From: a bacterium
Lineage (GTDB): Bacteria; Myxococcota_A; Bradymonadia; REDH01
Assembly (NCBI GenBank): GCA_030427825.1
Contig: JAUICO010000006.1
Span: 16-64,015 of the forward strand
Reading direction: 5' to 3'
Length of the DNA: 64,000 nt
The position numbers were made by a program, and so were the translations under genes. The notes under the pieces are model-generated. The model saw nothing but the letters and a program-made list of their open reading frames with translations, made no database searches and had not been told where the DNA came from. Every line of letters starts with the position of its first letter. The first letter of the stretch is position 1. Shown one piece after another: positions 4,813 through 57,127 of the stretch.

Positions 4813-6936
4813 TTGATTACATCACGCACACCGACCCTTGCATACGCACTGAAGGACGCCCTCGGCGAGGGCGCGCTGGACCTGCTCCTTGCCGATGCGA
4901 CGCTCGTCGAGGTGTCGTCCGGCGATGAGATTGTGCGCGAAGGCGAGCACGGCGACGCCCTGTATGTCGTGCTTGAAGGGGACGCGATCATCCACCGACA
5001 CAGCGGGGACGGCCGGGATACCGTTGTAGCGAACTGTGGTCCGGGCGAGCACTTCGGAGAAGCCGCGCTCCTGCCCGGACGCAGCCCTCTTCGCAGCGCC
5101 GGCGTGCGGGCGCGAACCCGGATGCGTCTGCTGAGAATCGAACGCGAGCACTTTCAGCGGGCCCTCGCCGCGGACCGTGCGTTCAAGCGACGCCTTGAGG
5201 AGCGAGCGGATTCACACCGGGCCGCTGCAGTTGTACGCAGCTCGGCGCTGCTGGATGCTCTTGGACTCAGCGACAACGAACGCGCCGCATCGATCGCTTT
5301 CGAGCGAGGCACTTCCCTCTTCGGTGCCGGGGAACCCGCGCGTGCGCTGTATTTCGTCATAAGTGGTGCCGTTGAAGTGTACGTCTCTACGGGCGATGGC
5401 GATCATGTGATCAGTACCCTGGGTGGCGGACATTGCTTCGGTGAAGTCGGGCTTCTCGAGGACGCGCCTCGGACCGCCTCGGCGCGCGTCATCGAGGATG
5501 CCCGGCTGCTGGTGATCTCGGCCGAGCACGTGCGCGCCACAATGTCAGAGTCGCCACGTCTCGCGGGCATTTTTCGCGAACTCAAGCGAAGCTACAAGTT
5601 GCCGCGAAGAGGCACGGTGACTCAGTACGTGAATCGCGTTGATGGCCAGGACGCGATTACGACGGTGTATGAGCTTGAGGGCCATAGGAGCGTTGTCGCG
5701 GTCAGATCGATGCGGGGTGAGTCATTCACCGCGCGCGTTGTCGGCGAGACCGCAACGAATAGGCTTCGGTACGCCGATAGGGAACACGGTGTGGAGCGCA
5801 GCCTGGGGTTGAGTGCATCTGGAGCACTCGTCGAACTCGTTGTGCACGGGCCGTGGATCCAACTCAGCGAAGTGTTTCGGTTGCTGCTTGACGGGGTGGA
5901 GAATGACGCCGGACTCACGGCACGGTTCGAAGAAGCAGGCTCGATCGCTTTGGCCGATGTTAACGAGAGCCCGGGCGTACGCTGTGTGTGTGTAGGGGCC
6001 GGCACGTCGGCAGTGATCGAAGCACTGCGGGTCGGCGATGGGAGCTTTTCAGAGCTTCAAGCCGAGACTGGCTGCGGTACCGTTTGCGGGTCCTGCGTGC
6101 CGGCGATTCGTCACTTCGTTGACAACGGCGTGTGGCGGCCGGCGGTGATCAGCGAAGACCGTTTTCTCGCTGAGGGCACGCGCGAGTTTGCAATCAAACC
6201 ACTTGATGGCCCAGCCGAGCGATTCGTCCCGGGACAACACATCGTGCTGTCCGGACTCGTTGACGGTATGTGGGTTCAACGCGCCTACACACTGACAACG
6301 GCGGGCGATCCGGCACCGGAGTATCGGATTGCGGTCAAGCGTGAACCATCGGGCGTGTTCTCGAACTGGCTTTTCTCTGAGGGTGGTCGCGACGCGATTC
6401 TGCAGGTGAGCTCGCCGCGAGGCAGCTTGTGCTGGAGCGCGGACGACCGCCCGACGGTGTGTTTGGTCGCTGGGATTGGCTGCACACCGGCGCTGGCAAT
6501 CGTTGCGGCTCACACGCAGCGCGAGTCGTCGAGTCCGCTGCACGTCGATTACTCGGCAGGCAATCGTGATTCAGCGGCGGCGCTCGACGCGCTCTCGGCG
6601 GCGGCAGAAGCATGCGGGTGCCTCACGCTGCGTACCCGGTTTACGTCGGATGAGGGGCGGATTGATGAGGCCGCAGTGGCTGCCCTGGCTTCGCAGCACC
6701 CGGCGGCGCAATACGTTATCTGCGGGCCGGAATCGTACGCAGGAGTCGTAATGCGCGGCCTCCGACTTGCGGGGGTTTCGGACGCTGCGATCCACACCGA
6801 GTCTTTCGTGCTGCAAAGTGAATCGCGGGCGACGAAGAACGATGGCGGGGGCGCGGACGTCAGGGGTGGCGGCGCGCGTCGTGCCTCACCCGGTGTCCTC
6901 AAGAGTCTGTTGCGAAGCGTGTTCGGCCGCGGCTGA
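4813..6936 (+). CDS. Fusion protein: two tandem cyclic-nucleotide-binding domains, a BFD-like [2Fe-2S]-binding motif, and a ferredoxin-NADP reductase-like FAD/NAD(P)-binding oxidoreductase domain.
   Basis: Two cNMP-binding-like segments (LVEVSSGDEIVREGEHGDALYVVLEGDAII...FGEAALL and SLFGAGEPARALYFVISGAVEVYV...CFGEVGLL). A C-x-C...C-x-x-C cluster (CVCVGAGT...ETGCGTVCGSCVP). An FNR-like RAYTLTT (RxY[ST]) FAD motif and a VCLVAGIGCTPALAIV NAD-binding motif. TTG start. Confidence 0.7.
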   Translation: MITSRTPTLAYALKDALGEGALDLLLADATLVEVSSGDEIVREGEHGDALYVVLEGDAIIHRHSGDGRDTVVANCGPGEHFGEAALLPGRSPLRSAGVRARTRMRLLRIEREHFQRALAADRAFKRRLEERADSHRAAAVVRSSALLDALGLSDNERAASIAFERGTSLFGAGEPARALYFVISGAVEVYVSTGDGDHVISTLGGGHCFGEVGLLEDAPRTASARVIEDARLLVISAEHVRATMSESPRLAGIFRELKRSYKLPRRGTVTQYVNRVDGQDAITTVYELEGHRSVVAVRSMRGESFTARVVGETATNRLRYADREHGVERSLGLSASGALVELVVHGPWIQLSEVFRLLLDGVENDAGLTARFEEAGSIALADVNESPGVRCVCVGAGTSAVIEALRVGDGSFSELQAETGCGTVCGSCVPAIRHFVDNGVWRPAVISEDRFLAEGTREFAIKPLDGPAERFVPGQHIVLSGLVDGMWVQRAYTLTTAGDPAPEYRIAVKREPSGVFSNWLFSEGGRDAILQVSSPRGSLCWSADDRPTVCLVAGIGCTPALAIVAAHTQRESSSPLHVDYSAGNRDSAAALDALSAAAEACGCLTLRTRFTSDEGRIDEAAVAALASQHPAAQYVICGPESYAGVVMRGLRLAGVSDAAIHTESFVLQSESRATKNDGGGADVRGGGARRASPGVLKSLLRSVFGRG

Positions 6937-6945
6937 GAGCCGTTC

Positions 6946-7704
6946 TCAGCCCGCGGCTTCAAGGGGCGCTATTGACACCTCTGTCGTGGGTGCCGGGGTC
7001 TGTTTCATGCGAAAATGCAGGAGGTAGAGGTAGACCAGATCCAACACGAGGATAGTGACACACAGGAAGGTGAGAAAGGCCCAATGCTCAATGTGTGGAT
7101 TCATCAGCGGCAGAAACACGTGGGCACCGATGGCCGTCCCGAGGGTTCCAAGCATCTTGAGCCATGCGCCGGCGACGCTGAGGCCGCGACCATCTTCGCG
7201 TTGAAAGAACGCCCAGATGAAGAGGACGCTCATCACAAGGTTGATGAAGAAGGCGTCGATGAGCGCGAGGCGGTCCTGAAAGGTGATCACGAAGGTCAGC
7301 TGCCCGGCGATGCCGATAACAATCGCCGCCGGCACCCACACACGGAACCACTTTCGCAACCAGTAGTTCTTCTGCATGGCGGCTCCATAGGTCCAAAGCT
7401 GCCAGACCAGCAGGCAGTCGAGCAAGAGCCAGCCCATGTTCAGGGCCGGCCACAGCGTGTTGAAGTTCGGCAGGATCAGATACATCGACTCCCAGCCGAA
7501 GTTCAGGCACATCGCGATCGCCGGCACCGCCGGAGCCTTGTCACGGAATCCTTTCCTGAGAAAGCAGATGTAGGCGAGGATCCATAGCACGCAGCCGAAA
7601 GAGCAGACGAGGTGGTACCAGGCCCAAAGGTCCAGGGCCTCGGGCGGGGCATTCTCAAAGTTTGGAAGATACGCGTTCAACATCGTCTCTGGCTCGCGGC
7701 GCAA
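6946..7704 (-). CDS. Multi-pass integral membrane protein of unknown function.
   Basis: 252-aa ORF with 6-7 hydrophobic helices and many W/F/L residues. No recognisable catalytic motif. Confidence 0.5.
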   Translation of the reverse strand: MRREPETMLNAYLPNFENAPPEALDLWAWYHLVCSFGCVLWILAYICFLRKGFRDKAPAVPAIAMCLNFGWESMYLILPNFNTLWPALNMGWLLLDCLLVWQLWTYGAAMQKNYWLRKWFRVWVPAAIVIGIAGQLTFVITFQDRLALIDAFFINLVMSVLFIWAFFQREDGRGLSVAGAWLKMLGTLGTAIGAHVFLPLMNPHIEHWAFLTFLCVTILVLDLVYLYLLHFRMKQTPAPTTEVSIAPLEAAG

Positions 7705-7840
7705 TCGTGGAGAGGTTTACTATCGTGCGTTATCTCGCGGCGGATGCACCGCGCCGCACAATGATGTCACTTGACCGAAGGGATGAGCATGTACCTGCTC
7801 GCCTCACGCGCGTCACACGATTTGTAGTATTACCCTCTCC

Positions 7841-7920
7841 AGGGAAGCACAGCTTTCCGCCGGGGTTCGAGGGGGTGAAAACCCGCTCGCAGAGCGCGAG
7901 ACAGCGTCTCGCACCCCGCC
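7841..7920 (+). repeat. Copy A (short form, ~80 nt) of a structured three-hairpin intergenic element.
   Basis: gGGAAGCacaGCTTTCC / gggggtGAAAaccc / GCGAGACagcGTCTCGCacc. It shares its order, palindromes and end motifs with the copies at 10215, 13113 (minus) and 13764. Confidence 0.8.
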
Positions 7921-8013
7921 CATGCGACGACACGGGCGCGCACCTCATCAGACACTGGTCGGGGTGGTGCCCCGCTGCTATGTCGACTGCCGATTCGTTG
8001 CTAAGGAGCACGC

Positions 8014-9234
8014 TTGTTACCTGCCAATGCACCGGTCCCGGACCGCTTCAGTCGCCGGGATGAAGCAGCGCGCATGTTCGGCGAGGACGCGCGCCGCTTC
8101 GCACAGTACATGATGCAGGGCGACCCCCTGGCTGATGCGCTCGCGTTGCGGCTGTCGAAGGGGCGAATCGGAGCGTCGCAGGCATTGGTGGACCGCGCGT
8201 TGCGCGAAGGCGTCGACCGACTGGGCGTGATTCCGGGCGAGCTTCGCGCCCTGCTGGATGAAGTTGAGCAGGTTCCGGACTGGGTAGACTTTGACAGAAT
8301 CCACCACGGTGCAGTGGCGGTTCAACGCCTGGGGCCGGCTGCCATGCTGATTCTCTCGGCGTGGTCGCTGATGAACAGCTATCACAGCGGACCGGCAGTC
8401 AAGGCACTGATGTTCACCGGAGAGTTAACGACTCGCGCGCCGCGTCGCCTGGCTGAGACGGGACGATTCGTCACGGAAGTGACGCAGGTGGATGGTCTCA
8501 GACGCTTTGGAAGAGGCCTTGAGATTACGGTGAAGGTACGCATCATGCATGCGCAGGTTCGCCGGATGATTCACGCAGATGCCTCTGTTTGGAATGCCTC
8601 TGCATGGGGCGCGCCGATCAATCAGGCGGACATGCTGGGGACGATTGTCGAGCTGTCTTTCCTGGTGATCGAAGGGGCCCGAAAGCTGGGTTTTCGGTTC
8701 ACAAGGAAGGAGCGCGAGGACATTGTTCACTTGTGGCGCTACGTCGGCCATCTTTCCGGGGTTTCACCCTGGCTGTTGGAGCATCTGGATTCCTACGAGC
8801 GTGGGTGGGAGTTCTCGCAGATGATCCGTATGGTGCAGGCGGGCTCCGACGACGACTCAGTCGCACTCGCGGCTGCGTTGAGAGACGCGAGCTACCAATC
8901 CGTATCAAGCAGGTTTGAGCGGATGATGTTGCCGGTTGTGACTCGACTGCATAACGGCCTAGTCTGGTCATTCAACGGGGATGAGATTGCGCGCGACTTG
9001 AAGACTCCGAACCGAGCGTGGCGGCATGCACGCCTGCCGATACGAGCCGTGATCAGCGTGCTCGAGCTGGTGCGAATATGTGTGCCGGGGATGTCTGCGG
9101 CACTGTCCAGGCGACGAAACGCCGCCGGCCTGGCGCGGATCTCATCGATGCTTGAGAATCGAGAGCCTGCGTTCACCGTGGGTTCGTCGACAGAGCGCCT
9201 TCTCTCGACCACGCCGCACCGGGCGATTGAGTAG
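8014..9234 (+). CDS. DUF2236 / MpaB-like oxygenase-family domain protein (tentative).
   Basis: 406 aa, TTG start 15 nt after AAGGAG. The RIMHAQVRRMIH segment and overall alpha-helical composition recall the DUF2236 family. No other motif identified. Confidence 0.4.
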   Translation: MLPANAPVPDRFSRRDEAARMFGEDARRFAQYMMQGDPLADALALRLSKGRIGASQALVDRALREGVDRLGVIPGELRALLDEVEQVPDWVDFDRIHHGAVAVQRLGPAAMLILSAWSLMNSYHSGPAVKALMFTGELTTRAPRRLAETGRFVTEVTQVDGLRRFGRGLEITVKVRIMHAQVRRMIHADASVWNASAWGAPINQADMLGTIVELSFLVIEGARKLGFRFTRKEREDIVHLWRYVGHLSGVSPWLLEHLDSYERGWEFSQMIRMVQAGSDDDSVALAAALRDASYQSVSSRFERMMLPVVTRLHNGLVWSFNGDEIARDLKTPNRAWRHARLPIRAVISVLELVRICVPGMSAALSRRRNAAGLARISSMLENREPAFTVGSSTERLLSTTPHRAIE

Positions 9235-9325
9235 AACAGCGGCTCCGGGAGTGCCGCTCCGGTATGGCCTGAGCGTCGAGTTGCCCCCGCTTGAGCACTT
9301 GAGCCGAGGCGACTAACGTGGCTGC

Positions 9326-10171
9326 ATGCTCACTCTCGCTCAGCGAATCCAAACACCGCCGCTGAAGTGCCAGGGCATAAAGACGAAGCTCCTGCCTTTC
9401 ATCGCTGCATCGATTGACTGGGATTACGCCGGGACGTGGATTGAACCCTTCGGGGGCTCTGGAGTGGTGGCGCTGAACATCGCGCCGCCGCGGGTTCGCT
9501 ACTCGGACGCGAATCCACATATTGTGAACTTGTATGCCGGGATTCGCGACGGGCGGGTGACGCCGGAGTCGGTACGTGTACACCTTGAACGCGAAGGCGC
9601 ACAGCTTCTCGAAATCGGCGAAAGTCACTACTACGCGATTCGATCGCGATTCAATGCGTCGCATGATGCACACGACTTTATCTTCCTAAATAGGAGCTGT
9701 TTCAACGGCCTGATGCGCTTTAACCGTAGCGGCGGTTTCAACGTTCCTTTCTGCCGCAAGCCGGAGCGATTCCGACCTGCGTACGTCACGCGCATCGTGA
9801 ACCAGGTCGCGGCTATGGCGATGGCGATGCAGCGATCAAGTTGGGAGATCCTTTGTCTGGATTGGAGGGAATGCGTCGCGACCGCCGTCGCCGGCGATCT
9901 TGTGTACATGGATCCGCCGTATATCGGCCGTCACGCTGACTACTACACACAATGGGATGAGAGCGAAGCCCAGGCGCTTGCGGCGTGGGCGCGCAGTGCG
10001 CCCTGCGGATTCGCCTGTTCGATGTGGGCAAAGACGCAATATCGCACCAACACACACCTCGAAGAGGACTGGTCCTGGGCACGCACCGTGACCACGGAGC
10101 ACTTCTTTCATCTGGGCAGCTACGAGAAGCTGCGCGGCGGAGTCACCGAGGCCCTGCTGCTGCCCGCATAG
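9326..10171 (+). CDS. Dam-like (D12 class) N6-adenine DNA methyltransferase, an orphan with no restriction-enzyme partner.
   Basis: EPFGGSG (motif I; E. coli Dam has EPFVGAGSV). FLNRSCFNGLMRFNRSGGFNVPF matches Dam LYLNRYGYNGLCRYNLRGEFNVPF. DPPY catalytic motif (VYMDPPYI). ATG start. GC content slightly below the flanks. Confidence 0.85.
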   Translation: MLTLAQRIQTPPLKCQGIKTKLLPFIAASIDWDYAGTWIEPFGGSGVVALNIAPPRVRYSDANPHIVNLYAGIRDGRVTPESVRVHLEREGAQLLEIGESHYYAIRSRFNASHDAHDFIFLNRSCFNGLMRFNRSGGFNVPFCRKPERFRPAYVTRIVNQVAAMAMAMQRSSWEILCLDWRECVATAVAGDLVYMDPPYIGRHADYYTQWDESEAQALAAWARSAPCGFACSMWAKTQYRTNTHLEEDWSWARTVTTEHFFHLGSYEKLRGGVTEALLLPA

Positions 10172-10214
10172 AACGGCGCACTCAACCCCGACTGCTGCTA
10201 CCAACCCCCCATCA

Positions 10215-10349
10215 GGAAAGCGCAGCTTTCCGCAGGGATTCCAAAGGGTGAAAACCCTTTGGCAGAGCGCGAGAAGCAATCGAGTCCGGTTGCCGGTGGC
10301 AACCGAGCGAGAGCGCTAGTGCTGATCGCGTAGCGAGCAGTCTCGCACC
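10215..10349 (+). repeat. Copy B (long form, ~135 nt) of the structured element.
   Basis: GGAAAGCgcaGCTTTCC / ccaaagggtGAAAaccctttgg / GCGAGA + ~70-nt insert (ccggttgccGGTGgcaaccg and cgcta...tagcg hairpins) + cagTCTCGCacc. ~85% identical to the reverse complement of 13113-13247. Confidence 0.8.
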
Positions 10350-10354
10350 ACGCA

Positions 10355-12037
10355 CTACTCGTCGCTGATCGTCAGCTCGGCGCCCATCAGCACCGGCTTC
10401 ATCACCTTGCCTGAGGCATTGCGCGGAAGTGGTTCTCGTCGAATCTCCCAGTGTGCCGGAATCTTGAAATACGCGAGCTTTGATTCCAGCGCCTGTTTGA
10501 TCTCATCGATATCCGGTGTGGCGCCGGGTAGGGGAACCAGGATGGCCTTGCACTCCTGCCCCAGCTCCTCGTGCGGGACGCCTACGACGGCCACCTCGTC
10601 GATTCCCGGCAGCAGCGCGAGCTGCGCCTCGATCTCTGCAGGGTAGATGTTCTCGCCTCCCCGAATGATCAGATCAGTGCGCCGGGACGCGATGTGCAGT
10701 CGCCCGTCGCGCAGGAAGCCGATGTCGCCGGTGCGCAACCACCGGTCACCGGTGATTCGCTCCGCGGTCGCCTCCGGATTGCGCCAGTAGCCCTGCATGA
10801 CAAGAGGAGAGCGAATCCAGATTTCGCCGATCTCACCGTCTGGCAGGCCGACCCCGTGGTCGTCGCGTATGCTCACCTCCACTGTCGGTAGCGGGCGCCC
10901 CACAGACGTGGGAAACTGTGCGAGCTCGTCGCCGAAAGTGATGGTTGCCAGCGCGCAGGCTTCCGTCAGCCCGTATCCCACGGCAGCGGTGGTTCTCACG
11001 CTCGGCATGCGCGTTTTGAGTTCCGTCATCAGCGCCTCAGAGACCGGTGAGCCGCCGAGCCCGACAAAGCGCATGCTGCTGAGGTCGTATTGGTCGAAGT
11101 CCGGATGAGCGAGGACGCGATGCACCATCGTGGCGGTCGGCCCCCAGCCCGAGACCCGCTCGCGCTGAATGATCTCGAGGATTTCGCCGGCATCGAAGCG
11201 TCCGACGGTCCACACCGTTTTGGCGCCTACGACCATGCGGGTGATAATTCCGGCGTAGAGCCCGGACACATGAAAGAGCGGCGTACTCACCAGGGCGCAG
11301 TTTTCTTCTGTCTGAACCACATCAACACCGCGCAGCTGGTCGAGCATGCTCGCACGTGCGCCGTGAAATATCTGAATCCCGGTCAGAGCAATGATGTTGC
11401 GGTGTGTGGCTACAATGCCCTTCGGTCGCCCGGTCGTGCCGCTGCTGTAGAGAATCGCCGCCGGGTCGTCTTCGTCGATGTGTGTTTGGCAGAGCGCCGC
11501 GTCCATGTGTGGACGGGTCAGGGCGTCAAAGCCCTCTTCAATCACGACCGTCGGACACATCTCTCTCGCTTCGGGAGCCCGCGCCAGTCGCTTGCGATCT
11601 ACGAAGAGGACCTTTGGTACACAGTCTTTCAGAGCAAACAGGATCTCGTCACGCACCCACCAGCCGTTCAGCCCGACAGGGAGAGCGCCGAGGCTGATAG
11701 CGGCCCAGAAAGCGATGACCCACTCCGGCTTGTTTGAGGCCAGAATCGCAACTCGGTCACCCTTTTGAACGCCAAAGCGCTCACGCAATGCGGCCGCGGT
11801 GGCGCACACCAACCGATAATGTTCTGCGTAGGTGATTCTGCGATCGCCGAAGATGACGTATTCGCGTTCACCGAAGCCTGCGCTTGCGGCGAGTACGTCT
11901 CGCAGCGAGCGGTGGCGGCTTCGAAACACAGACATCGGGACACCGGCGACATCTTCGATGTGTGTTTCGAAGTGGCTTCCGGGTGCCAGCAACGCGGCCT
12001 CAATCCCGGCAAGGTCCGCCGCAACGTCAGGTGACAT
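10355..12037 (-). CDS. AMP-dependent synthetase/ligase (acyl-CoA synthetase family).
   Basis: YSSGTTGRPKG AMP-binding signature. ~560-aa two-domain adenylate-forming enzyme layout. Its start overlaps the upstream AKR stop by 11 nt. Confidence 0.85.
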   Translation of the reverse strand: MSPDVAADLAGIEAALLAPGSHFETHIEDVAGVPMSVFRSRHRSLRDVLAASAGFGEREYVIFGDRRITYAEHYRLVCATAAALRERFGVQKGDRVAILASNKPEWVIAFWAAISLGALPVGLNGWWVRDEILFALKDCVPKVLFVDRKRLARAPEAREMCPTVVIEEGFDALTRPHMDAALCQTHIDEDDPAAILYSSGTTGRPKGIVATHRNIIALTGIQIFHGARASMLDQLRGVDVVQTEENCALVSTPLFHVSGLYAGIITRMVVGAKTVWTVGRFDAGEILEIIQRERVSGWGPTATMVHRVLAHPDFDQYDLSSMRFVGLGGSPVSEALMTELKTRMPSVRTTAAVGYGLTEACALATITFGDELAQFPTSVGRPLPTVEVSIRDDHGVGLPDGEIGEIWIRSPLVMQGYWRNPEATAERITGDRWLRTGDIGFLRDGRLHIASRRTDLIIRGGENIYPAEIEAQLALLPGIDEVAVVGVPHEELGQECKAILVPLPGATPDIDEIKQALESKLAYFKIPAHWEIRREPLPRNASGKVMKPVLMGAELTISDE

Positions 12038-13019
12038 CGTTGCCGATCAGCATCACCTCTTCGGTGCGGTCCGTGGCAGGTGGCGGTGTCGGCCACATGT
12101 CTGAGATCTCCTGATACAGGTCGTCGCTGATTCGATAGTCCGCGCCGTCGAGAAGCGGGCGCATCTGCTCAACGGTGCGGGCACCGATGATGGGGGCTGT
12201 CACCGCCGGGTGGGTGCGCGCCCACGCCACGGCCAATGTCGCGGGGTGCACGCCGGCCTTGTTTGCGATCCCGACAAACTGTTCAGCGGCGGCGTAATAG
12301 TGCGGGTCCGAATACCGCGCCCTGTACATTTTGTTTGACACCAGGCGCCCCGAAGGCGGTCGCAGGTCTTTGCCGTACTTGCCGGTAAGCAATCCACCGG
12401 CGAGGGGGCCGTAGGCAAGTACGCCGAGTCCCTCGGACTGCGCCATCGGCAGAATCTCTACTTCGGCCTGGCGCTTCACCGCGCTGTACATAGGCTGAGT
12501 GCAAACCGGCCGGGCCCAGCCGTACTTCTCACACATGTCGACGGCCTTCTGCGTCTGCCAGGCCGAAAAGTTGCTGACCGCCGGGTAGAGGATCTTTCCC
12601 TGCCGAACGAGGTCGTCCACCGCCCGCATCGTCTCGTCGAGAGCGGTCATGCTGTCGTAGCGGTGCAGGAAGAAGACATCGATGTAGTCGGTCCCAAGAC
12701 GCCTGAGGCTGGCTTCAACAGCCCGCACCAGATGGTAGCGCGACAGCCCCCAGTCATTCGGTCCCTTTCCGGTGGGAAAGTACGCCTTGGTGGTCAGCAC
12801 GATGTCATCCCGCGACCGCCCGATCAGCTTGCCAAGCAGCAGTTCACTGCGCCCCTTCCCGTAGATATCGGCGCAGTCGAAGGTGTTGATCCCGGCGTCC
12901 ATCGCCGCCCGAAACAGAGCGGCCGAAGCCTGGTCGTCTGCGTCGCCGCCGAAGGCCATCGTACCGAATACCAGCGCCGATACTTTGACGCCCGTGCGCC
13001 CCAGCAGCTTGTACTGCAT
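12027..13019 (-). CDS. Aldo/keto reductase. The true start is the ATG at 13019; the listed ORF has a 186-aa spurious extension.
   Basis: MQYKLLGRTGVKVSALVFGTMAFGG...DTFDCADIYG...LHRYD is the AKR signature. First gene of an operon with the acyl-CoA synthetase. Confidence 0.85.
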   Translation of the reverse strand: MQYKLLGRTGVKVSALVFGTMAFGGDADDQASAALFRAAMDAGINTFDCADIYGKGRSELLLGKLIGRSRDDIVLTTKAYFPTGKGPNDWGLSRYHLVRAVEASLRRLGTDYIDVFFLHRYDSMTALDETMRAVDDLVRQGKILYPAVSNFSAWQTQKAVDMCEKYGWARPVCTQPMYSAVKRQAEVEILPMAQSEGLGVLAYGPLAGGLLTGKYGKDLRPPSGRLVSNKMYRARYSDPHYYAAAEQFVGIANKAGVHPATLAVAWARTHPAVTAPIIGARTVEQMRPLLDGADYRISDDLYQEISDMWPTPPPATDRTEEVMLIGNDVT

Positions 13020-13112
13020 CGTCAGTTCCCCAGGTTCGAAATTGGTGTGCGCAACAGCTACACGATCCGAAGTCGCCGGGGAATGCCGCCGCGCGATCGG
13101 GTGCTTACGCGA

Positions 13113-13247
13113 AGTTGCGAGACTGCTCGCTGCGCGATCAGGACTACCGCTTTCGCGCGGTTGCCACCGGCAACCGGGCTCAATTGCTTCTCGCGCTCTG
13201 CAAAGGGGCTTTCGCCCCTTTGAACCCCGGCGGAAAGCTTCGCTTTC
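13113..13247 (-). repeat. Copy C (long form, minus orientation) of the structured element.
   Basis: The reverse complement reads GGAAAGCgaaGCTTTCC / caaaggggcGAAAgcccctttg / GCGAGAagcaattgagcccggttgccggtggcaaccg...cagTCTCGCaa. It is in the sense orientation for the AKR operon and ends ~96 nt before the AKR ATG. Confidence 0.8.
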
Positions 13248-13374
13248 CTGAAGAGCGTCTTGAGCTGCGGACACTCCTGAGAATAGCAGTGGCCGAGCTT
13301 CGAGAATGTGACGTCGAGCACTATAGCGGCAATCATCTTGCGCGAGTGCGAATCGAACTACTGAGGAGACCCTG

Positions 13375-13722
13375 ATGGCGTGGCAGATTGTTCGAGTGGT
13401 CGTGAGTGTGGCGGTGATCATTGCGGTGAGCGAGGTGGCTTCCCGCAGCTCGACCCTGGGTGCGGTGCTGGCGTCGATCCCCCTGGTCAGCGTCCTGGGC
13501 ATGATGTGGCTGTACCTGGACACCGGCGAGACGGAAACGGTGGCGGCTCTGAGCCGTGACATCGTCTGGCTGGTCATCCCCTCACTTGTCCTCTTTGTTC
13601 TGCTGCCGATCCTGCTTGAGCGCGATTGGGGCTTCTGGACCGCTCTGGCGACGTCGATCGCGGCAACGGTGGGATGCTACCTGCTCACCATCGCCGCGAT
13701 GAGCCGACTTCGAGGTGGGTGA
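13375..13722 (+). CDS. Small hydrophobic membrane protein (3-4 TM helices) of unknown function.
   Basis: 115 aa, essentially all hydrophobic helices. No motif. Confidence 0.45.
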   Translation: MAWQIVRVVVSVAVIIAVSEVASRSSTLGAVLASIPLVSVLGMMWLYLDTGETETVAALSRDIVWLVIPSLVLFVLLPILLERDWGFWTALATSIAATVGCYLLTIAAMSRLRGG

Positions 13723-13763
13723 TTCCAGGCGCCCACAATCATCCGACCCGAAAAACCACCAAC

Positions 13764-13838
13764 GGAAAGCGTAGCTTTCCGTGGGGTGCAGGGGCATGCG
13801 CCCCTGCCGGGAGCGCGAGGGCAGCGCCCTCGCACCCC
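13764..13838 (+). repeat. Copy D (short form) of the structured element.
   Basis: GGAAAGCgtaGCTTTCC / gcaggggcatgcgcccctgc / GCGAGGGCagcGCCCTCGCacc. The stems of hairpins 2 and 3 differ from copy A but remain self-complementary. Confidence 0.75.
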
Positions 13839-13971
13839 CACGCCGCTACTCAGAGCGCCACTCAGATTTGACCCGGTGGGCGTGTCGATCTAGCTGCCAT
13901 GTACACTCGCACGATCGGGACCGGCGCTGCCAGGCGCGGGGGACACGTGTGGCCAGACCCCGGGTTTTGGA

Positions 13972-16527
13972 ATGACAGTCGCCAGACTACTGCTCGCTAC
14001 GTCAGCGGCAATGCTCTTCGCATTGATGGGAGCTGCGCATGCGGCGTGCCCGGATCAGAACCTCGGTTCTCAGCTGGGAACGGTGGCGACGGGTTCTACA
14101 TGTGATGCGTTGAATGACGACGCCGGCAGCTGCGGGACGGTGAATGGGACGGATGAAGATGTCGCATTCGTTTGGACGGCGCCCGAGGCCGGCACCTACA
14201 CTTTTGCGACCCTCGGCTCGAGCTACGACACGGTAATCTACGTGCGCGACGGCGAGTGTGGCAGCACGGAGCTGGCCTGCGACGACGACACGGCGGACGG
14301 GACCCTGTCGCTCATCAGCGATCTGCCACTCGCGGCGGGTCAGACCGTCACGATTCATCTGGACGGCTACAGCGGGTGCGGAAACTACTCACTGACGATT
14401 GAGAATACGACGACGCCACCCTGCGCCGATGAGAACATCGGCTCGGCTCTTGGCGCGGTCTCCTCCGGGACCACCTGTGGGCTGGGAGACGTCATTGAGG
14501 GAAGCTGTGACAGCGGAAGCGGTGGCGAGGAGCGGATCATCGCGTGGACCGCGCCGCAGTCCGGCGACTACACTTTCAGCCTCGCCGGCTCCTCGTACGA
14601 TACGATTCTGTCGCTTCGCAACGGCGCATGTGACGGCGTGGAGCTCGGTTGCGATGATGACGGCATCGACATCGGTGGTGCATCGCGGCTCAGCGATGTG
14701 GCTCTGAGCGCGGGCCAGGAGATCTTCATCGTTGTCGATGGGTACACCGGCTGTGGCAGTTACTCGCTGAACATCTCCGGGAACTTCCCGGCCCCGTGTC
14801 CGGGCACCGACCTTGGCAGCGCGGTGGGCAACGGAGTGGCGGGCGGCACTACCGGCGGGACCTCGGGCATGACCTCGGGCTCCTTTGGAGACTGTTCCGG
14901 ATCGACCGGACCGGAGGCATCCTATCTTTGGACTGCACCGGCTACAGGCACCTACAGCTTCAGCACAGACAACGGCTCGACCAACTTCGATACAGTGCTC
15001 TATCTTCGCGCGGTCGGATGTTCGGGCGCGGTAATCGCGTGCAGCGACGATGAAGACCCGGGCGGCTTCTTTGGCGGCGGTAACTCGCGGTCGTCGATCT
15101 CGGGAATCAATCTCAGCGGCGGACAGCAGGTGGTGATTGTCGTCGACGGATACGACAGCACTGAGAGCGGTTCATTCGCCCTCGACATTGGCGGCGGCTG
15201 GTGCGGCGACGGCACCATTCAGGCAGGGGAAGAGTGCGACGGCGCCGGTACCGTGAACATCTCCGGTCAGTCCGACTGCGCGACGCTGGTGCCGGGTTCA
15301 TCAGGTGTTGTTGTTTGCGGCGAGACCGGAATCAGCGGTTGCCGGAGAGACACCAGCGGGTGCTCGGTGACCTGCACACCGAGCACAGAAGTGTGCGACG
15401 GGCTGGACAACGACTGCAATGACACCGTCGATGATGGCGGCTCGGCGTTGTGCAGCGACCCGCCAAACGCAAGCGGTGTGTGCAACGGATCTGCCGGCTG
15501 TGGGCTGATCTGCAACTCGGGCTTCTTTGACGGCAACGGCGACGTATCCGACGGATGCGAGAGTTCGTCGTGCCAACCGACGAACGGCGGCGTCGAAGTG
15601 TGTGATGGTTTGGACAATGATTGTGATGGTACCAATGACAATGGGGGCAACGCGCTGTGTGTAGACCCGGCAAACGCGACCGCAGTGTGCAACGGAGCAG
15701 CTGGGTGTGCGTTGGTTTGTGACAATGGGTTTGTCGACGCGAACGCTGATGCATCGGACGGCTGCGAAGTCGCGGTGCTCACGGACAGTGACGGGGATCA
15801 GGTACCCGATGCAAGTGACAACTGCCCCTTTACTGCGAACGTCGACCAAACGGACACAGATGGGGACGGCGTCGGTGACGCCTGTGACACCGTGGGCCCG
15901 GTAGACAGCGACGGTGACGGCATCAGCGACGAGAACGACAACTGCCCGCTGAACAGCAACCCGGGTCAGGAAGACAGCGACGGCGACGGCGCCGGCGACA
16001 TCTGCGACACGGGGGACCCGCCGGACGGCGACGGCGACGGCATCGCTGACGCAAACGACAACTGCCCCCTCGTCGCGAACGCGGATCAGGCAGACGACGA
16101 CAACGATGGCGTCGGAAATGTATGCGACACGACGGGCCCTGCGGCGGACACGGACGGCGACGGCGTCGTCGATTCCGAGGACAACTGCGTTGCTGCTTTT
16201 AATCCCGGGCAGGAAGACAGCGACTTCGATGGTATTGGCGATGTCTGCGATACAGGCACCCCCGGGGGCGATGCGGACGGCGACGGCGTGCCCGACGCTA
16301 CCGACAATTGTGTTCAGGTTCCCAATACCAGACAGACAGACACGGATCGCGACGGTATCGGCGACGCCTGTGACACGAACAACAACGCAGGTGGTGGCGG
16401 ATCGCGGCCGTCGGGAACGCGGGTGCGCGGCGGCTCCCTGTTTGGTTGTGCGTCATCGCAGGCGCCGGCCTCGGGCGTCGCGCTCCTGCTGATCGGTCTG
16501 CTCTGTGTGGTCAGACGTTTGAGGTGA
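13972..16527 (+). CDS. Large secreted multi-repeat protein with a MYXO-CTERM-like sorting tail.
   Basis: Signal peptide (MTVARLLLATSAAMLFALMGAAHA). Four ~125-aa N-terminal repeats (CPDQNLGS...GSSYDT...CDDD...GYSGCGNYSL). CGDG...EECD and CDGLDNDC(N/D)D cysteine repeats (Myxococcus-type / MopE-like). About ten thrombospondin-type-3-like Ca-binding repeats (DSDGDGI(A/S)DENDNCP). C-terminal GCASSQAPASGVALLLIGLLCVVRRLR. Confidence 0.75.
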   Translation: MTVARLLLATSAAMLFALMGAAHAACPDQNLGSQLGTVATGSTCDALNDDAGSCGTVNGTDEDVAFVWTAPEAGTYTFATLGSSYDTVIYVRDGECGSTELACDDDTADGTLSLISDLPLAAGQTVTIHLDGYSGCGNYSLTIENTTTPPCADENIGSALGAVSSGTTCGLGDVIEGSCDSGSGGEERIIAWTAPQSGDYTFSLAGSSYDTILSLRNGACDGVELGCDDDGIDIGGASRLSDVALSAGQEIFIVVDGYTGCGSYSLNISGNFPAPCPGTDLGSAVGNGVAGGTTGGTSGMTSGSFGDCSGSTGPEASYLWTAPATGTYSFSTDNGSTNFDTVLYLRAVGCSGAVIACSDDEDPGGFFGGGNSRSSISGINLSGGQQVVIVVDGYDSTESGSFALDIGGGWCGDGTIQAGEECDGAGTVNISGQSDCATLVPGSSGVVVCGETGISGCRRDTSGCSVTCTPSTEVCDGLDNDCNDTVDDGGSALCSDPPNASGVCNGSAGCGLICNSGFFDGNGDVSDGCESSSCQPTNGGVEVCDGLDNDCDGTNDNGGNALCVDPANATAVCNGAAGCALVCDNGFVDANADASDGCEVAVLTDSDGDQVPDASDNCPFTANVDQTDTDGDGVGDACDTVGPVDSDGDGISDENDNCPLNSNPGQEDSDGDGAGDICDTGDPPDGDGDGIADANDNCPLVANADQADDDNDGVGNVCDTTGPAADTDGDGVVDSEDNCVAAFNPGQEDSDFDGIGDVCDTGTPGGDADGDGVPDATDNCVQVPNTRQTDTDRDGIGDACDTNNNAGGGGSRPSGTRVRGGSLFGCASSQAPASGVALLLIGLLCVVRRLR

Positions 16528-29755: not shown

Positions 29756-32149
29756 TCAGTTTGCCGGGTAGACGATGGCTTCAGAGACCTTGGCGATGCG
29801 GTCGATCACCAGGTTCTGGTAGGTCAGCTCATCGTCACCGGTGGTCGACACCCGGCCGGTCATGTGTTGCGCCCACTGCGTGCGAATGTGCTGTGTGAGC
29901 TCGCCCACCGTGATCGTTCCATCGGTGGGAAACACATCTGCGTCGCCGGCGAGGCCGGTGCGGATAAAGTGTGACAGGTAGCCGCCGGCTTCGAAGTTCT
30001 CTGCGACGAGTGAGATGACGTCTTCTTCAGAGGAGAAAATGCCGACGCGGTTTGGCTCGGTGACGAGGTCGCGGGCGAAGCCGCCGGAGAAGCACGCGTC
30101 CATCGCGATGATCTCCAGACGTGCATCGACAGGTTCCAACCACAGCGCCAGCTCGTCGTCATTGATGTGCCCGTCGCGAACATACATGGACTCGTCGCGT
30201 CCATCGGGTTCGCCTTCGTCTCCGGTGTCGCGCTGACCACCGTGCCCTGAGTAGAAGAAGAGGAAGGTGTCGTCGGGACCCACCTGCGCGGCGACGTCCG
30301 CGATTGCGCTCTGCAGGGCGTCACGGGTAACCTCGGCGTCGGTCAGCACCACACTCTCCGGTGCAAGAATGCCGGTCTCGGCCAACGAGCCGTGCAGCTT
30401 GGTCGCGTCGTCTGCGCAGTACGCCAGTGAGCTCTGGTCGACGTACTCGGTGATGCCGGCGATGACCGCGTAGATCTGCCCGCCGGGTCGTCCGTTCGTG
30501 ATGGAGGTCGCGAGAGCGCCCGTTGCCGGCACGCCGTCACTGATCGAGATTCGGTAGCTGCCGGTCTGCCCGGCACCGTACGAGGTGACAAAAACCTTCA
30601 TCAGTGTTCCGTCCGCTGCGACGCCGATCCGCGAGTTGTAGTTGCCCGGCTCCGCGTCGTCGTTTGCATCCGAGTAGCCGATGTCGGATTCGACAAGGAC
30701 GTAGGTATCGAAGTCGTCGGACTCCAGGTCGATCGTCAGCGCGGTGCCTGCGGGAGCCTGCACGGTGTACACATCGTAAAACTCACCGCTGGTGAAGGAC
30801 GGCTCGCTGCCGTCGAGAGTACCCGCGATCACATCGCCCACACGCAGGTCTGCGCCGGTTTCCGCAGGTACGCCGGTGGGCTCCTCTGTCAGCGCCGTGA
30901 TCAACCCGCCGCGTTGCAGGCTGAGGTTGAACGCTCCCGCCTCTTCGATCTCGTAGCTTGAGGCGATGATGTTCCATGCGCCCGATGTCGGGAGCACGTA
31001 GTCGATGCGGCTGTTGAAGTTGTCGACAGCCACGTCATCGTTCTCGGTGCCGCGGCCGTCGGGGCCCTGCAGAAAGAGGTAGGTGTCGAAGTCTGCTGAC
31101 GACAGATCGATGACCACGCGTTCGCCGGCGTGACCGGTAAAGGTGAAGCTCTCGACGCTCTGGCCTGTGGCACGTGTGGCGTCGCCGCCGTCGAGTTCAC
31201 CGGTCAGCGATTCGCCGTATGCGATCGCCGTAGCGCCGGAGGTCGCCGTCGGCTCTGCCTGCAGCGCGACGTCTTCCCGGTAGGCGCTGAGAGCGTAGGT
31301 ACCGCCGGTGGTTGAATCGTAGGGCCTGACAGTCAGGTAATAGGTGCCCGACTCCGGCGCGACAAAGCTCGCCCGGCTGTTTGTGCCCTGTCCGGGCGCG
31401 TCGTCGTTCGCGGTTGCAAAGCCGCCCGGTCCGTCGATCTCGACCACCGTGTCGAAGGCGTCCGAGCTCGCGACGACGACCACGCTCTGCCCGCCATCCA
31501 GTGCGACGGCCCAGCGGTCCATGGCGCCGCCGGAGATGTGGGTTGCATCCCCCTCATCGAGGCTGCCGGCCACGTCGGCGCCCAGCTCGAGAGCCATGGC
31601 GGGTGTGGGCGCCGGCAGTGCCATTTCGGCCGACGACAGAACGTAGCTTCCGGTCTCTCCGGGTGCGTAGCTGGTGACTTCGACGATATAGGCAGCGGTT
31701 TGCGGCAGTCGCACCCGTAGCCGTGCGTTGACGTTGTCGTGGCCACGGTCGTCGTTGAATTCCATGTAGCCGCCGGGTCCGCGTATCACGAGCCAGGTGT
31801 CGAACTCGTCCGAGTCGGCATCGAGAATCAGAACCTGGCCTGCGCGTCCGACGAAAGAGTAGCGATCCATGTACTCGCCGGTGTCGTAGGTCGGGTCGCC
31901 GTCTGCGAGGCTGCCCGCTACGCGCTCCGCGTCGGAGCCGCCGATGGCCAGCGGGATCGCTGAGGTACGGAGTTCCTCGATGAGGGGATCGGTGACCTCG
32001 GGAACCAACTCGGCGACCTCGACGACTGACTGTATGCCGTCGTCAACAGCTGCGCCCGGCGTCTCCGTGGCCTGGTTGCCGCCACAGGCGGCGATAGCGA
32101 GCGCGCCGCTGAGGGCGATGGCGCCCCGGATGATGCGATGGGTCGTCAT
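29756..32149 (-). CDS. Lipoprotein with 4-5 pre-peptidase C-terminal (PPC)-like repeats and a C-terminal peptidase C14 (orthocaspase) domain. Start reset to the ATG at 32149.
   Basis: MTTHRIIRGAIALSGALAIAACGG (lipobox), preceded by a GGAG RBS. Repeats of ~95 aa (LDxGD.T...G...D.Y.......V.I.L.S.DFDT.L.....G............N.R......GTY...V.SY....G.Y.LS). C-terminal FFYSGHG and IIAMDACFSGG form a caspase-type His/Cys dyad. Confidence 0.7.
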   Translation of the reverse strand: MTTHRIIRGAIALSGALAIAACGGNQATETPGAAVDDGIQSVVEVAELVPEVTDPLIEELRTSAIPLAIGGSDAERVAGSLADGDPTYDTGEYMDRYSFVGRAGQVLILDADSDEFDTWLVIRGPGGYMEFNDDRGHDNVNARLRVRLPQTAAYIVEVTSYAPGETGSYVLSSAEMALPAPTPAMALELGADVAGSLDEGDATHISGGAMDRWAVALDGGQSVVVVASSDAFDTVVEIDGPGGFATANDDAPGQGTNSRASFVAPESGTYYLTVRPYDSTTGGTYALSAYREDVALQAEPTATSGATAIAYGESLTGELDGGDATRATGQSVESFTFTGHAGERVVIDLSSADFDTYLFLQGPDGRGTENDDVAVDNFNSRIDYVLPTSGAWNIIASSYEIEEAGAFNLSLQRGGLITALTEEPTGVPAETGADLRVGDVIAGTLDGSEPSFTSGEFYDVYTVQAPAGTALTIDLESDDFDTYVLVESDIGYSDANDDAEPGNYNSRIGVAADGTLMKVFVTSYGAGQTGSYRISISDGVPATGALATSITNGRPGGQIYAVIAGITEYVDQSSLAYCADDATKLHGSLAETGILAPESVVLTDAEVTRDALQSAIADVAAQVGPDDTFLFFYSGHGGQRDTGDEGEPDGRDESMYVRDGHINDDELALWLEPVDARLEIIAMDACFSGGFARDLVTEPNRVGIFSSEEDVISLVAENFEAGGYLSHFIRTGLAGDADVFPTDGTITVGELTQHIRTQWAQHMTGRVSTTGDDELTYQNLVIDRIAKVSEAIVYPAN

Positions 32150-32284
32150 TTGTGTCTCCTGGGATGTAGCGACTGCACATCGAATCGATGCGTAGTCAGC
32201 GACGGGTGTACTGCGATCGCCGGAGCCGCGACTCCGTTGATGTCTTCTACTGACGCGCGAAACTGCAGAGCATTCTGCACGGAC

Positions 32285-32315
32285 GCTTTGGGGAAGCAAG
32301 AAGGCAGCTTCCCTG
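32285..32315 (-). terminator. Possible hairpin terminator after the cox-III/IV pair.
   Basis: GGGAAGC-9 nt-GCTTCCC perfect 7-bp stem, ~70 nt downstream of the subunit-IV stop. There is no U-tract, so it is weak. Confidence 0.25.
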
Positions 32316-46206: not shown

Positions 46207-47019
46207 ATGACGATGTTCCGAGCCACAATCATTGCCGTGGTGTGCCTGTTTTTCGCAGCGCCCGTGTTGGCGCAGAGCGAAGCTGAAGAGGCGGGAAACC
46301 GCGCGATTGACGCTGTGACCGGCGGTTCCGACGACGGGGGAGACTCCGCGGAAGGCGCTGCCGATGTCGAAGCCGCGGGGGCGGACGGCGAAGAAGCTGA
46401 CGACGCTGACGACACGGTGACCGGCGACGGCGTGAACCCGAACGACACGGGTAGCGGCGTGGCAGGCGCGTTGGACGACGGCAGCTACGGTCTTCGAATC
46501 GAAGAGCTTGAGGATCAGGTCAACGAGCTGAAGGAGGACGTGTTCCGCTCGAAGTCGCGCCTGTTCCTGCTTCGTGAGCAGATCCTACAGGACAACATCG
46601 GTGGAGCCCGCGCCATCATTGAGCACAAGAGTGAGTTCGGGAACCGACTCCTGATCACGCAGGTGCTCTACAGTCTCGACGGCGACCTGGTGTTCAGCAC
46701 GACCGCCGAAGAGGCGGAGGTCGACTCTCTCGACGACATCCTGATCATGAACGACGCCATTCTACCCGGCCCGCACAACATCTCAGTGCAGATGAGCATA
46801 GAGGGTAACAGCAGTTTCTTTTCGTACCTCAACGGATACCACTTCACGATCACCTCGTCTGAGGCCTTCTCGGTAGAGCAGGGGCAGACGGCTGAGGTTG
46901 ATGTCGTGGCATTTGAGCGTGGCGACTCGAACGAGCCCTTCGAGGAGCGACCTACGGTCCGCTTCGAAGTGGATCTCTACGCCACGACTGAAGTTGAAGG
47001 CACCGACGGAGGATCATGA
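46207..47019 (+). CDS. Secreted protein with an acidic N-terminal region. First gene of the envelope-machine cluster.
   Basis: Signal peptide (MTMFRATIIAVVCLFFAAPVLAQS), D/G/E-rich segment, then a ~150-aa domain. Its stop overlaps the next start as ATGA. Confidence 0.5.
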   Translation: MTMFRATIIAVVCLFFAAPVLAQSEAEEAGNRAIDAVTGGSDDGGDSAEGAADVEAAGADGEEADDADDTVTGDGVNPNDTGSGVAGALDDGSYGLRIEELEDQVNELKEDVFRSKSRLFLLREQILQDNIGGARAIIEHKSEFGNRLLITQVLYSLDGDLVFSTTAEEAEVDSLDDILIMNDAILPGPHNISVQMSIEGNSSFFSYLNGYHFTITSSEAFSVEQGQTAEVDVVAFERGDSNEPFEERPTVRFEVDLYATTEVEGTDGGS

Positions 47020-49319: not shown

Positions 49320-49363
49320 TGCGGACACTTTGGAACATAGCACCGACACCTTCGAGGAAAGGG

Positions 49364-54664: not shown

Positions 54665-54675
54665 GCGGAACAACG

Positions 54676-54936
54676 ATGGAGACGACAATGACATCACGAT
54701 CGTTCGCATTGATTGCAGGTCTGTTCTTCACGATCGCGGTTCTCATGATCGCTTCGATGGCGGCGGCCGAAAACGAGAACATCTTCATTTTTGAAGAAGA
54801 CATCATCACGGGCGAGATCGAGAAGCCGGAGGCGTTCTATGTGCTCCGTGCATCGAGCCTCGACTACGAGTTTGACGACCGTGCGGAGAGCTTCCTTGAG
54901 GAGCTCCGACGAACCGTGGACCACGAAGCGTTTTGA
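54676..54936 (+). CDS. Small secreted protein (87 aa) of unknown function.
   Basis: METTMTSRSFALIAGLFFTIAVLMIASMAAAE is a signal peptide. Acidic mature part. Lower GC than the neighbours. ATG start. Confidence 0.35.
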   Translation: METTMTSRSFALIAGLFFTIAVLMIASMAAAENENIFIFEEDIITGEIEKPEAFYVLRASSLDYEFDDRAESFLEELRRTVDHEAF

Positions 54937-55495
54937 GTCGGACAGCGCCGAACTGAGTACGACTCAGGGGCCTTGGGCGGCGGCCTTGATGTGGCCTGCT
55001 CGGCACGCGAGACCCATTTGGGGTACGCGAACTACGTGCCACGACTGATCTACGTGAACGGGCGACGTCCCTGACCTGTTGGCGAGCGCCATCCGCCGCC
55101 GGCCGGACCGGTTCAAGGGAGTCGCCAAAGCCGCGCGTGAGCGCGATGCAGAGGCCCCGGTGACTCGGGTCTTCGGAGGCACACCTGTTGCCTCCTGCGC
55201 ATGCGCGCGGCCAAAACCGATGGCCCGAAGTACCTGTCAGTTGTGGGCCGCTCACGGCTTCCGCCGACACAGATCGTAGACCGATACCGAGATTCTGGCG
55301 TCGCCATTTTCGCTGTGTTAGTTCAGCACTCGACGTGGGGACGCAGATGAAAGCCAAATGGCTTGTGGACCGAGAATCCGCATAGTAAAGGGCTTCTCCA
55401 CGACGAATTTCGTCAATCACGGGTGGTAACATTTGAGCGGCGGTTCGCTCAATTTGTGTTGGACCTCAGTTAACTAAGACAGGAGCTAGTGAACT

Positions 55496-56137: not shown

Positions 56138-56280
56138 TTCGGTCACGGTCTGGGCTGTATTGCTGGGTGCGACCGTGGCGAAACCTCGCTTCCGGTCGCA
56201 TTTCACATTCAAGGCACTGGTAGACCAACGGGCTGACCTCGATCCGATGCGGTGAGGCGGCGCAACAGGGGCTTACAATC

Positions 56281-57066: not shown

Positions 57067-57127
57067 GCGCCGCTCGCCGAGTATTCCTCCCAGTTCCACT
57101 TTTCCGAGCTACTCCTGACGGAGCATT

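Follow-up and report, generated by a model that had tools for sequence, protein, structure and literature searches.

The 64-kb window analyzed here, positions 16 to 64,015 of contig JAUICO010000006.1 (assembly GCA_030427825.1), contains four copies, designated A to D, of a non-coding intergenic element that folds into three hairpins and a closing helix. The strongest result of the analysis comes from comparison with the only close relative found: purifying selection on its structure keeps the element where it is, so that it is neither junk nor a selfish insertion in decay. We tentatively regard it as a lineage-restricted, strand-specific structured cis element, most likely an RNA, that is common to the transcription units of its neighborhood, a plausible reading that we hold with somewhat less than even confidence.

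Conservation in a second genome

The relative is L120, a 3,648-nt metagenome contig from ENA, whose aldo-keto reductase (AKR) is 83% identical to that of the window. Its genes run in the order 115-aa membrane-protein gene (-), 4HBT thioesterase (-), short-form element (+), 113-nt spacer, AKR (+), and acyl-CoA synthetase (+). The thioesterase gene is missing from the corresponding position in the window, a gene-sized indel that abuts the element. Third codon positions are 48-49% identical between the two genomes, that is, saturated, and the flanks of the element cannot be aligned (z = 0.3 upstream and -0.1 distally downstream), yet the element core is kept (64/77 aligned, z = 15.9 against shuffles). 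Between copy C and its L120 ortholog, hairpin 2 differs by two full compensatory changes and one wobble. With neutral sites saturated and flanks unalignable, persistence of the element indicates purifying selection in place on its structure. This is the sole locus compared in a second genome, and here the element has stayed upstream of, and sense to, the AKR/acyl-CoA synthetase operon. Such retention while the surrounding intergenic DNA diverged is what a cis-acting or promoter-associated element would show.

The L120 copy is 70% identical to C, 68% to A, and 74% to B, and C itself is nearest to B (78% in the core). Since the L120 copy is no closer to C than to A or B, the family would either evolve around a constrained consensus or exchange sequence between copies.

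Within the window, a covariance model built from the element copies and run over the whole 64 kb with filters off returns exactly four matches; everything else, at 20 bits or less, consists of reverse-strand echoes of the same palindromes. E values range from 1e-15 to 1e-22 across the four window copies and the one in L120. A sequence-only reading of this DNA had placed four copies at these sites, and both the model and direct inspection of the sequence bear it out. The hairpin-1 motif gives eight strand-matches in the window, equal to four palindromic sites, against 0.13 expected, and the palindrome never occurs there without the rest of the element. Short forms (A, D, and the L120 copy) measure ~85 nt and long forms (B and C) ~146 nt. 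Copies B and C are 88% identical over 136 nt, and D is 54-58% identical to the others.

By a rough gene map, 22 intergenic gaps in the window reach 100 nt or more, and four adjacent ones hold the copies (p ~0.003-0.005); the model finds no copy in the remaining 18. All four thus cluster within one 6-kb stretch (also put as a ~7-kb neighborhood), and the other 58 kb of the window is empty. This clustering into adjacent gaps, absent from the sequence-only reading, is what is non-random about the placement of the copies.

Architecture and predicted fold

Each copy consists of a 7-bp hairpin 1 and a closing helix, P0, in which a G-rich 5' segment pairs with a C-rich 3' segment and which encloses hairpins 2 and 3 (Table 1). 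Hairpin 1, GGAAAGC-NNN-GCTTTCC (GGAAAGC-GNA-GCTTTCC), is unvarying in all five copies save for one G-U pair in A. The hairpin-2 and hairpin-3 stems of copy D differ in sequence and are still perfectly complementary. RNAalifold, run de novo on the three short forms, recovers the same four helices. On the model alignment, 88.5% of cells are paired, as against 35-50% when the partners are slid by one to three columns, and 0-1 of 500 shuffles attain the observed pairing values. Six pairs have both partners changed, four of them lying in hairpin 2 and two in P0, a count drawn from five sequences of two genomes. Conserved secondary structure backed by covariation, of the kind by which riboswitches and leader RNAs are recognized, is therefore present (n = 5 sequences). 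The closing helix, CGGGGT/ACCCCG, is degraded in B and C.

The extra module of B and C lies inside hairpin 3, is flanked by a GCGAG(A/C)AG direct repeat, and holds a perfect 8-bp hairpin, CGGTTGCC-GGT-GGCAACCG. No other occurrence was found in the window or in 137 fetched loci. Two origins are conceivable: nested insertion of the module, or its loss from the short forms by deletion between the direct repeats.

On the strand that the sequence-only reading called sense, the hairpin-1 loops are ACA, GCA, GAA, GCA, and GTA, so that four of five read G-N-A, with the final A constant and the middle base free. Hairpin 2 has a GAAA loop in A, B, and C and a GACA loop in L120, and pairing on this strand includes five G-U pairs versus two A-C. 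The opposite strand would show T-N-C and TTTC loops. Loop motifs and G-U pairs together favor the sense strand as the one that folds. Coding potential is excluded, as copy D has a stop and the L120 copy a frameshift in the sole shared frame.

An intrinsic terminator was considered and rejected: the sense strand has none, and hairpin 3 is never followed by a T-run. The one terminator-like signal flagged is hairpin 1 of copy D with the TGGTGGTTTT after it on the minus strand (13782-13762); as no gene of that strand ends there, the signal is probably fortuitous.

Position relative to genes

Copy A lies in a 309-nt divergent gap between the terpene cyclase (-) and MpaB/DUF2236 (+) genes, and copy C in a 355-nt divergent gap between AKR (-) and the 115-aa gene (+). 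Copy B fills a 183-nt convergent gap between the methyltransferase (+) and the acyl-CoA synthetase (-), whereas copy D stands between two plus-strand genes, those of the 115-aa protein and the TSP3-repeat protein. From the end of the conserved ...TCTCGCACC of copy A (7915) it is 98 nt to the TTG at 8014; from the end of copy C (13115/13116), 95-96 nt to the AKR ATG at 13019; and from the end of copy D (13836/13837), 134-135 nt to the ATG at 13972. In copy B, hairpin 1 starts 43-44 nt past the methyltransferase stop at 10171. The distances of 98, 96, 134, and 44 nt given by the sequence-only reading are reproduced within 1-2 nt, depending on the element edge chosen. At its other end, copy B, which is antisense to the convergent synthetase, comes within 5 nt of that gene's stop codon. 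Copy D starts 35-41 nt past the stop of the 115-aa gene.

From these positions it had been argued that the copies are always sense to a neighboring gene, lie at a near-constant distance from start codons, and occupy 5' leaders in three cases. The first statement is true of all four copies but carries little weight: because their gaps are divergent or convergent, A, B, and C are sense to a neighbor either way, A and C being automatically upstream of it as well, and since only D could have been antisense to both neighbors, the chance of the pattern is 0.5. The near-equal distances of 96 and 98 nt do not hold up, as the ortholog in L120 lies 113 nt from the AKR ATG and the chance of two of three distances falling within ~3 nt is ~8%. 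As to leaders, A, C, and D are indeed upstream of and sense to genes, but the 115-aa gene had been overlooked, and D, because it begins so shortly past the stop of that gene, is as much a 3' element as a 5' one. The always-sense, same-distance pattern is mostly a geometric by-product of gene arrangement. The general lesson is that a sense-to-neighbor orientation is guaranteed in divergent and convergent gaps, and that one should count which copies could violate such a rule before scoring it as evidence.

A second conserved island, a promoter-like block of ~66 nt, adjoins the AKR start codon in both genomes (z = 7.3). In each genome its motif CATTCC begins 19 nt from the start of a second motif, ATCGTGTAG, whose end is in turn 38-39 nt from the ATG; the spacer from element to block is variable (29 vs 46 nt). 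The block has no conserved RNA fold (fold z of -0.65 and +0.78, neither of which beats shuffles), and L120 lacks the hairpin that pairs with the Shine-Dalgarno sequence in the window. The block is therefore probably the core promoter or operator, together with a short 5' untranslated region, of the AKR/acyl-CoA synthetase operon. Because it lies downstream of copy C, the leader version of the proposal is weakened; transcription starting downstream of the element is the situation that the sequence-only reading had itself named as contrary to it. Candidate sigma-54 (-24/-12) promoters in or downstream of the element, judged by eye, are all off in spacing by at least 1 nt.

Interpretation and alternatives

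The sequence-only reading proposed a cis-acting leader RNA or promoter-associated element. What stands is a real, structured, strand-specific, non-coding element kept upstream of and sense to the AKR operon; we retain the idea of a shared cis-acting element and drop the arguments from orientation and distance and the strict leader placement. Nor was an expression platform found: the copies have neither a sense-strand terminator nor a conserved Shine-Dalgarno-sequestering fold. As we picture it, the element would act as RNA, each copy being transcribed as the untranslated end of a neighboring transcription unit, namely 5' of mpaB-dam, 5' of AKR-acs, 3' of dam, and 3' of the 115-aa gene (equally 5' of the TSP3 gene). 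The unvarying hairpin 1 would serve as a docking site for a trans-acting factor and the covarying helices as a scaffold. The outcome would be a common post-transcriptional handling (stability, processing, or boundary definition) rather than a distance-dependent leader switch.

A bolder version, which we think unlikely, would make the element a factor- or ligand-binding RNA motif of a new class, built of an unvarying GNA-loop hairpin and a three-way junction, with an inserted domain as an option, coordinating steroid/isoprenoid-modifying units in uncultured Polyangia-like Myxococcota. If it is a functional RNA or DNA module, the element gives access to the coordination of a few lipid/isoprenoid-type genes in a poorly known lineage of myxobacteria, and it would add a structured motif that is absent from Rfam.

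Several observations weigh against a shared cis-acting RNA. The closing helix is degraded in two of the four window copies, no sense-strand terminator accompanies any of them, and the covariation, drawn from five sequences, is statistically thin and suggestive rather than conclusive. C(GNA)G and GAAA loops are stable in RNA and in single-stranded DNA (ssDNA) alike, so the loop motifs cannot tell the two apart. Copy C, being upstream of the presumed AKR start site, may lie outside the AKR mRNA. Finally, no conserved promoter was seen upstream of the copies, and a comparison of the neighborhood's six upstream regions turned up no shared promoter or operator motif.

Of the alternatives, the one that fares best is an ssDNA mobile or recombination element of the REP/RAYT or IS200/IS605-derived type, spread locally into adjacent gaps and with hairpins read by a Y1/HUH enzyme encoded elsewhere. 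It would account for copies that are multiple, tightly clustered, strictly intergenic, and in both orientations, and for a strand-specific fold with DNA-stable C(GNA)G mini-hairpins. The nested insert shared by the 88%-identical B and C, the greater closeness of C to B (78% in the core) than to its positional ortholog (70%), and the presence or absence of the 4HBT gene beside the element also fit. As in IS200/IS605-type elements, hairpins stand near both ends and there are no terminal inverted repeats or target-site duplications. The element has, however, neither a GTAG head nor a conserved target tetranucleotide, the sequences 5' of the five copies (CTCTCCA, CCCATCA, CTCTTCA, CACCAAC, and CCGCAAA) showing no fixed 5' target. 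No transposase (TnpA and other Y1 enzymes included), RAYT, or integrase is encoded in the 64-kb window. The paralogs are old, at 54-78% identity, and their differences are compensatory rather than those of a recent burst, and retention at an orthologous site at synonymous saturation points to selection in place, to which selfish copies are not subject. Scans of viral and metagenome contigs for exact patterns were also empty of the element: the viral contigs yield two palindrome-only chance matches (15-19 bits), and a 22-base split pattern finds 13 loci in metagenome contigs, all chance matches in coding sequence. We consider mobility of this kind improbable. Two further mobile types can be set aside. 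The MITE class (miniature inverted-repeat transposable elements) is rejected because the 5' end (..CAGGAAAGC) cannot pair with the 3' end (TCTCGCACC..) and no direct repeats flank any of the five copies. An integron attC site is rejected because the closing helix does not match the attC cores (RYYYAAC ... GTTRRRY), copy C is inverted, and no integrase occurs in the 64 kb.

We give a slightly smaller chance to a double-stranded DNA operator or upstream activating site, the promoter-associated variant of the earlier proposal, in which a dimeric transcription factor would bind the palindrome GGAAAGC-N3-GCTTTCC and co-regulate divergent promoters. In five of five copies, hairpin 1 keeps its sequence and not just its pairing; the regions that hold A, C, and the L120 copy are divergent promoter regions; the promoter-like block at AKR follows 29-46 nt downstream at variable spacing; and the neighborhood is functionally coherent. 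Nevertheless, neither the loop motifs nor the one-strand G-U bias would be explained by an operator, nor would compensatory change in the closing helix and hairpin 2. Copy B sits between two stop codons, no transcription-factor gene is adjacent, and the palindrome is never found without the remainder of the element.

A classical leader RNA, riboswitch-like or protein-binding, acting at a fixed distance before the start codon to control MpaB, AKR/acs, and the secreted protein, appears quite unlikely. The sense, upstream placement of A, C, D, and the L120 ortholog and the conserved, covarying structure speak for it, and the two conserved islands upstream of AKR could be an aptamer and its platform. 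Against this, orientation is uninformative (p = 0.5), the distance differs between window and ortholog (95-96 vs 113 nt), the proximal block lacks a conserved fold, the Shine-Dalgarno pairing is not found in L120, and there is no terminator. Copy B stands at a 3' end, and D comes 41 nt after a gene. The element is missing from the loci of AKR homologs at ~64% identity, whose gene contexts are different, and no Rfam family matches.

Sibling small RNAs with their own promoters, acting in trans, are equally doubtful: the compact, self-contained ~85-nt fold with its closing helix and the several diverged paralogs in one locus (known from some sibling small-RNA families) would suit them, and conserved unpaired stretches such as GCAGAGC could be seeds, but there is no shared upstream promoter motif, no U-tract terminator, and no conservation of the upstream flank between genomes (z = 0.3).

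Comparison with known elements

None of the 4227 families of Rfam 15 matches the element at gathering thresholds, and at E <= 10 there is just noise (9-17 bits, against thresholds of 38-100). The covariance model finds no copy in ~190 kb of more distant Myxococcota loci, which surround AKR homologs at ~64% identity and MpaB homologs at ~53% and differ from the window in gene context. A loose pattern, AAGCNNAGCTTTCCGN{1,2}GGGNT (17 specified bases), hits at least 106 loci of a genome collection, all of them chance matches without the rest of the element. Nothing was found by blastn of the long form in plasmids and phages or by a protein search with the concatenated six-frame translation of the copies, and a literature search for a myxobacterial repeat returned nothing usable.

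The element resembles several well-known kinds of repeat. BOX elements of Streptococcus pneumoniae are modular boxA-boxB-boxC intergenic repeats, dispersed in more than 100 copies per genome and thought to be mobile. They share with the element an intergenic, non-coding nature near gene ends, a length of ~100-200 nt, a modular build with optional or variable internal modules, and a predicted stable multi-hairpin fold. Here, in contrast, four copies lie in one 6-kb stretch with none in the other 58 kb and are conserved in place, and there is no sequence similarity.

Correia elements carry terminal inverted repeats and TA duplications, whereas ERIC is one long imperfect palindrome. The Correia/NEMIS repeats of Neisseria and the ERIC/IRU repeats of enterobacteria are co-transcribed with their neighbors and can alter mRNA processing or stability; like the element, they are structured, ~100-150 nt long, and occur in long and short forms by way of an internal segment. 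The element has no terminal inverted repeats, TA duplications, or single long palindrome.

REP sequences have known roles in mRNA 3'-end protection. Like them, the element is extragenic and palindromic, occurs in both orientations, folds as a single strand, and has one copy, B, between convergent genes, a frequent location of REP sequences. REP/BIME sequences with RAYT transposases are single imperfect palindromes of 20-40 nt with a GTAG-type head, present in high copy number and usually as inverted doublets (PMC2817692). The element does not fit this description, as it has three distinct hairpins and a closing helix over ~85 nt, no conserved GTAG head, and no RAYT gene nearby.

The orphan motifs filed under 'Cis-reg' in Rfam are similar in their conserved structure, covarying stems, and invariant segments and in recurring upstream of, and sense to, several transcription units. 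The element differs in having no Rfam match even at E <= 10, no expression platform found, one copy at a 3' end, and a distribution of two genomes only.

The element is new and narrowly distributed, so far in two genomes, within these well-known kinds of structured intergenic repeats and orphan cis-regulatory motifs. Its combination of traits is unusual: low, clustered copy number, an unvarying GNA-loop hairpin with a covarying three-way junction, an optional module, and conservation in place.

Table 1. Element copies, their parts, and neighboring genes in the window and in contig L120.
Feature	Position	Strand	Basis or remark
Copy A, short form	7836-7921	+	covariance model 94.7 bits, E 4.6e-22
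Copy A, hairpin 1	7842-7858	+	GGGAAGC-ACA-GCTTTCC, one G-U pair
Copy A, closing helix P0	7861-7866 with 7913-7918	+	fold and alignment, RNAalifold
Copy A, hairpin 2	7868-7889	+	GAAA loop
Copy A, hairpin 3	7896-7912	+	fold and alignment, RNAalifold
Copy B, long form	10209-10355	+	covariance model 84.4 bits
Copy B, hairpin 1	10215-10231	+	fold
Copy B, hairpin 2	10241-10262	+	fold
Copy B, extra module, ~61-63 nt	~10275-10337	+	alignment
Copy B, terminal hairpin GCGAG-CAGT-CTCGC	10333-10346	+	fold
Copy C, long form	13254-13108	-	covariance model 84.9 bits
Copy C, hairpin 1	13232-13248	-	alignment
Copy C, extra module, ~61-63 nt	~13126-13188	-	alignment
Copy D, short form, most divergent	13758-13842	+	covariance model 68.7 bits
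Copy D, hairpin 1	13764-13780	+	fold
L120 copy, short form	L120 1012-1098	+	covariance model 86.9 bits; ortholog of copy C
Promoter-like block (candidate), ~66 nt	13020-13085; L120 1139-1205	- (window)	proximal to AKR ATG; z = 7.3
Pyr4-like transmembrane terpene cyclase	6946-7704	-	Pfam/NCBIfam
MpaB/DUF2236	8014-9234	+	TTG start, AAGGAG Shine-Dalgarno 5 nt upstream
Dam-family D12 methyltransferase	9326-10171	+	Pfam/NCBIfam
AMP-binding acyl-CoA synthetase	10355-12037	-	Pfam/NCBIfam
Aldo-keto reductase (AKR)	12027-13019	-	11-nt overlap with acyl-CoA synthetase
115-aa membrane protein, between C and D	13375-13722	+	NCBIfam PRK09272 subfamily, 132.9 bits vs cut-off 119
TSP3-repeat (secreted) protein	13972-16527	+	Pfam/NCBIfam
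Ortholog of 115-aa gene	L120 36-383	-	sequence comparison
163-aa 4HBT thioesterase	L120 409-900	-	between 115-aa gene and element

Gene neighborhood and other features of the window

Profile searches with Pfam and NCBIfam confirm the gene identities named in the sequence-only reading. Against the NCBIfam model of the steroid-24-oyl-CoA synthetase CasG, the acyl-CoA synthetase reaches 670.8 bits, short of the cut-off of 750. The assignments point away from the functionally mixed set of the earlier description: a Pyr4-like terpene cyclase, an MpaB oxygenase, a CasG-like synthetase, and an AKR, joined in L120 by the 4HBT thioesterase, show a lipid/isoprenoid-type coherence and suggest a sterol/isoprenoid-modifying neighborhood. 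The closest named homologs come from metagenome-assembled genomes of Myxococcales, Sandaracinaceae, and Polyangiaceae.

The thrombospondin type-3 (TSP3) repeats of the secreted protein downstream of copy D are encoded by tandem DNA units of 120-123 nt (15217-16379), and the protein resembles the MYXO-CTERM cohesion protein MtsC (129.5 bits, below cut-off). A 707-aa protein (4813-6936, +) combines two cyclic-nucleotide-binding domains, a BFD-like [2Fe-2S] domain, and a ferredoxin-reductase-type FAD-binding domain in an unusual architecture; its PADLOC matches to Pycsar effectors arise solely through the cyclic-nucleotide-binding domains. PADLOC reveals no defense-system context, matching only these domains and the methyltransferase.

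Elsewhere in the window, a large protein (29756-32299, -; 847 aa as the scanned open reading frame) ends in a caspase-like domain of the EACC1-associated type (49 bits, below cut-off). The longest gap of the rough gene map, 559 nt without a gene (54937-55495) and with no Rfam match inside it, lies upstream of a MotA/TolQ-like gene. This gene and two ExbD/TolR-like genes follow a run of TPR-rich proteins that includes a GltC-like one (47016-49319), and the layout of the whole region (46207-57724, +) is reminiscent of myxobacterial gliding-motility (Glt/Agl) clusters.

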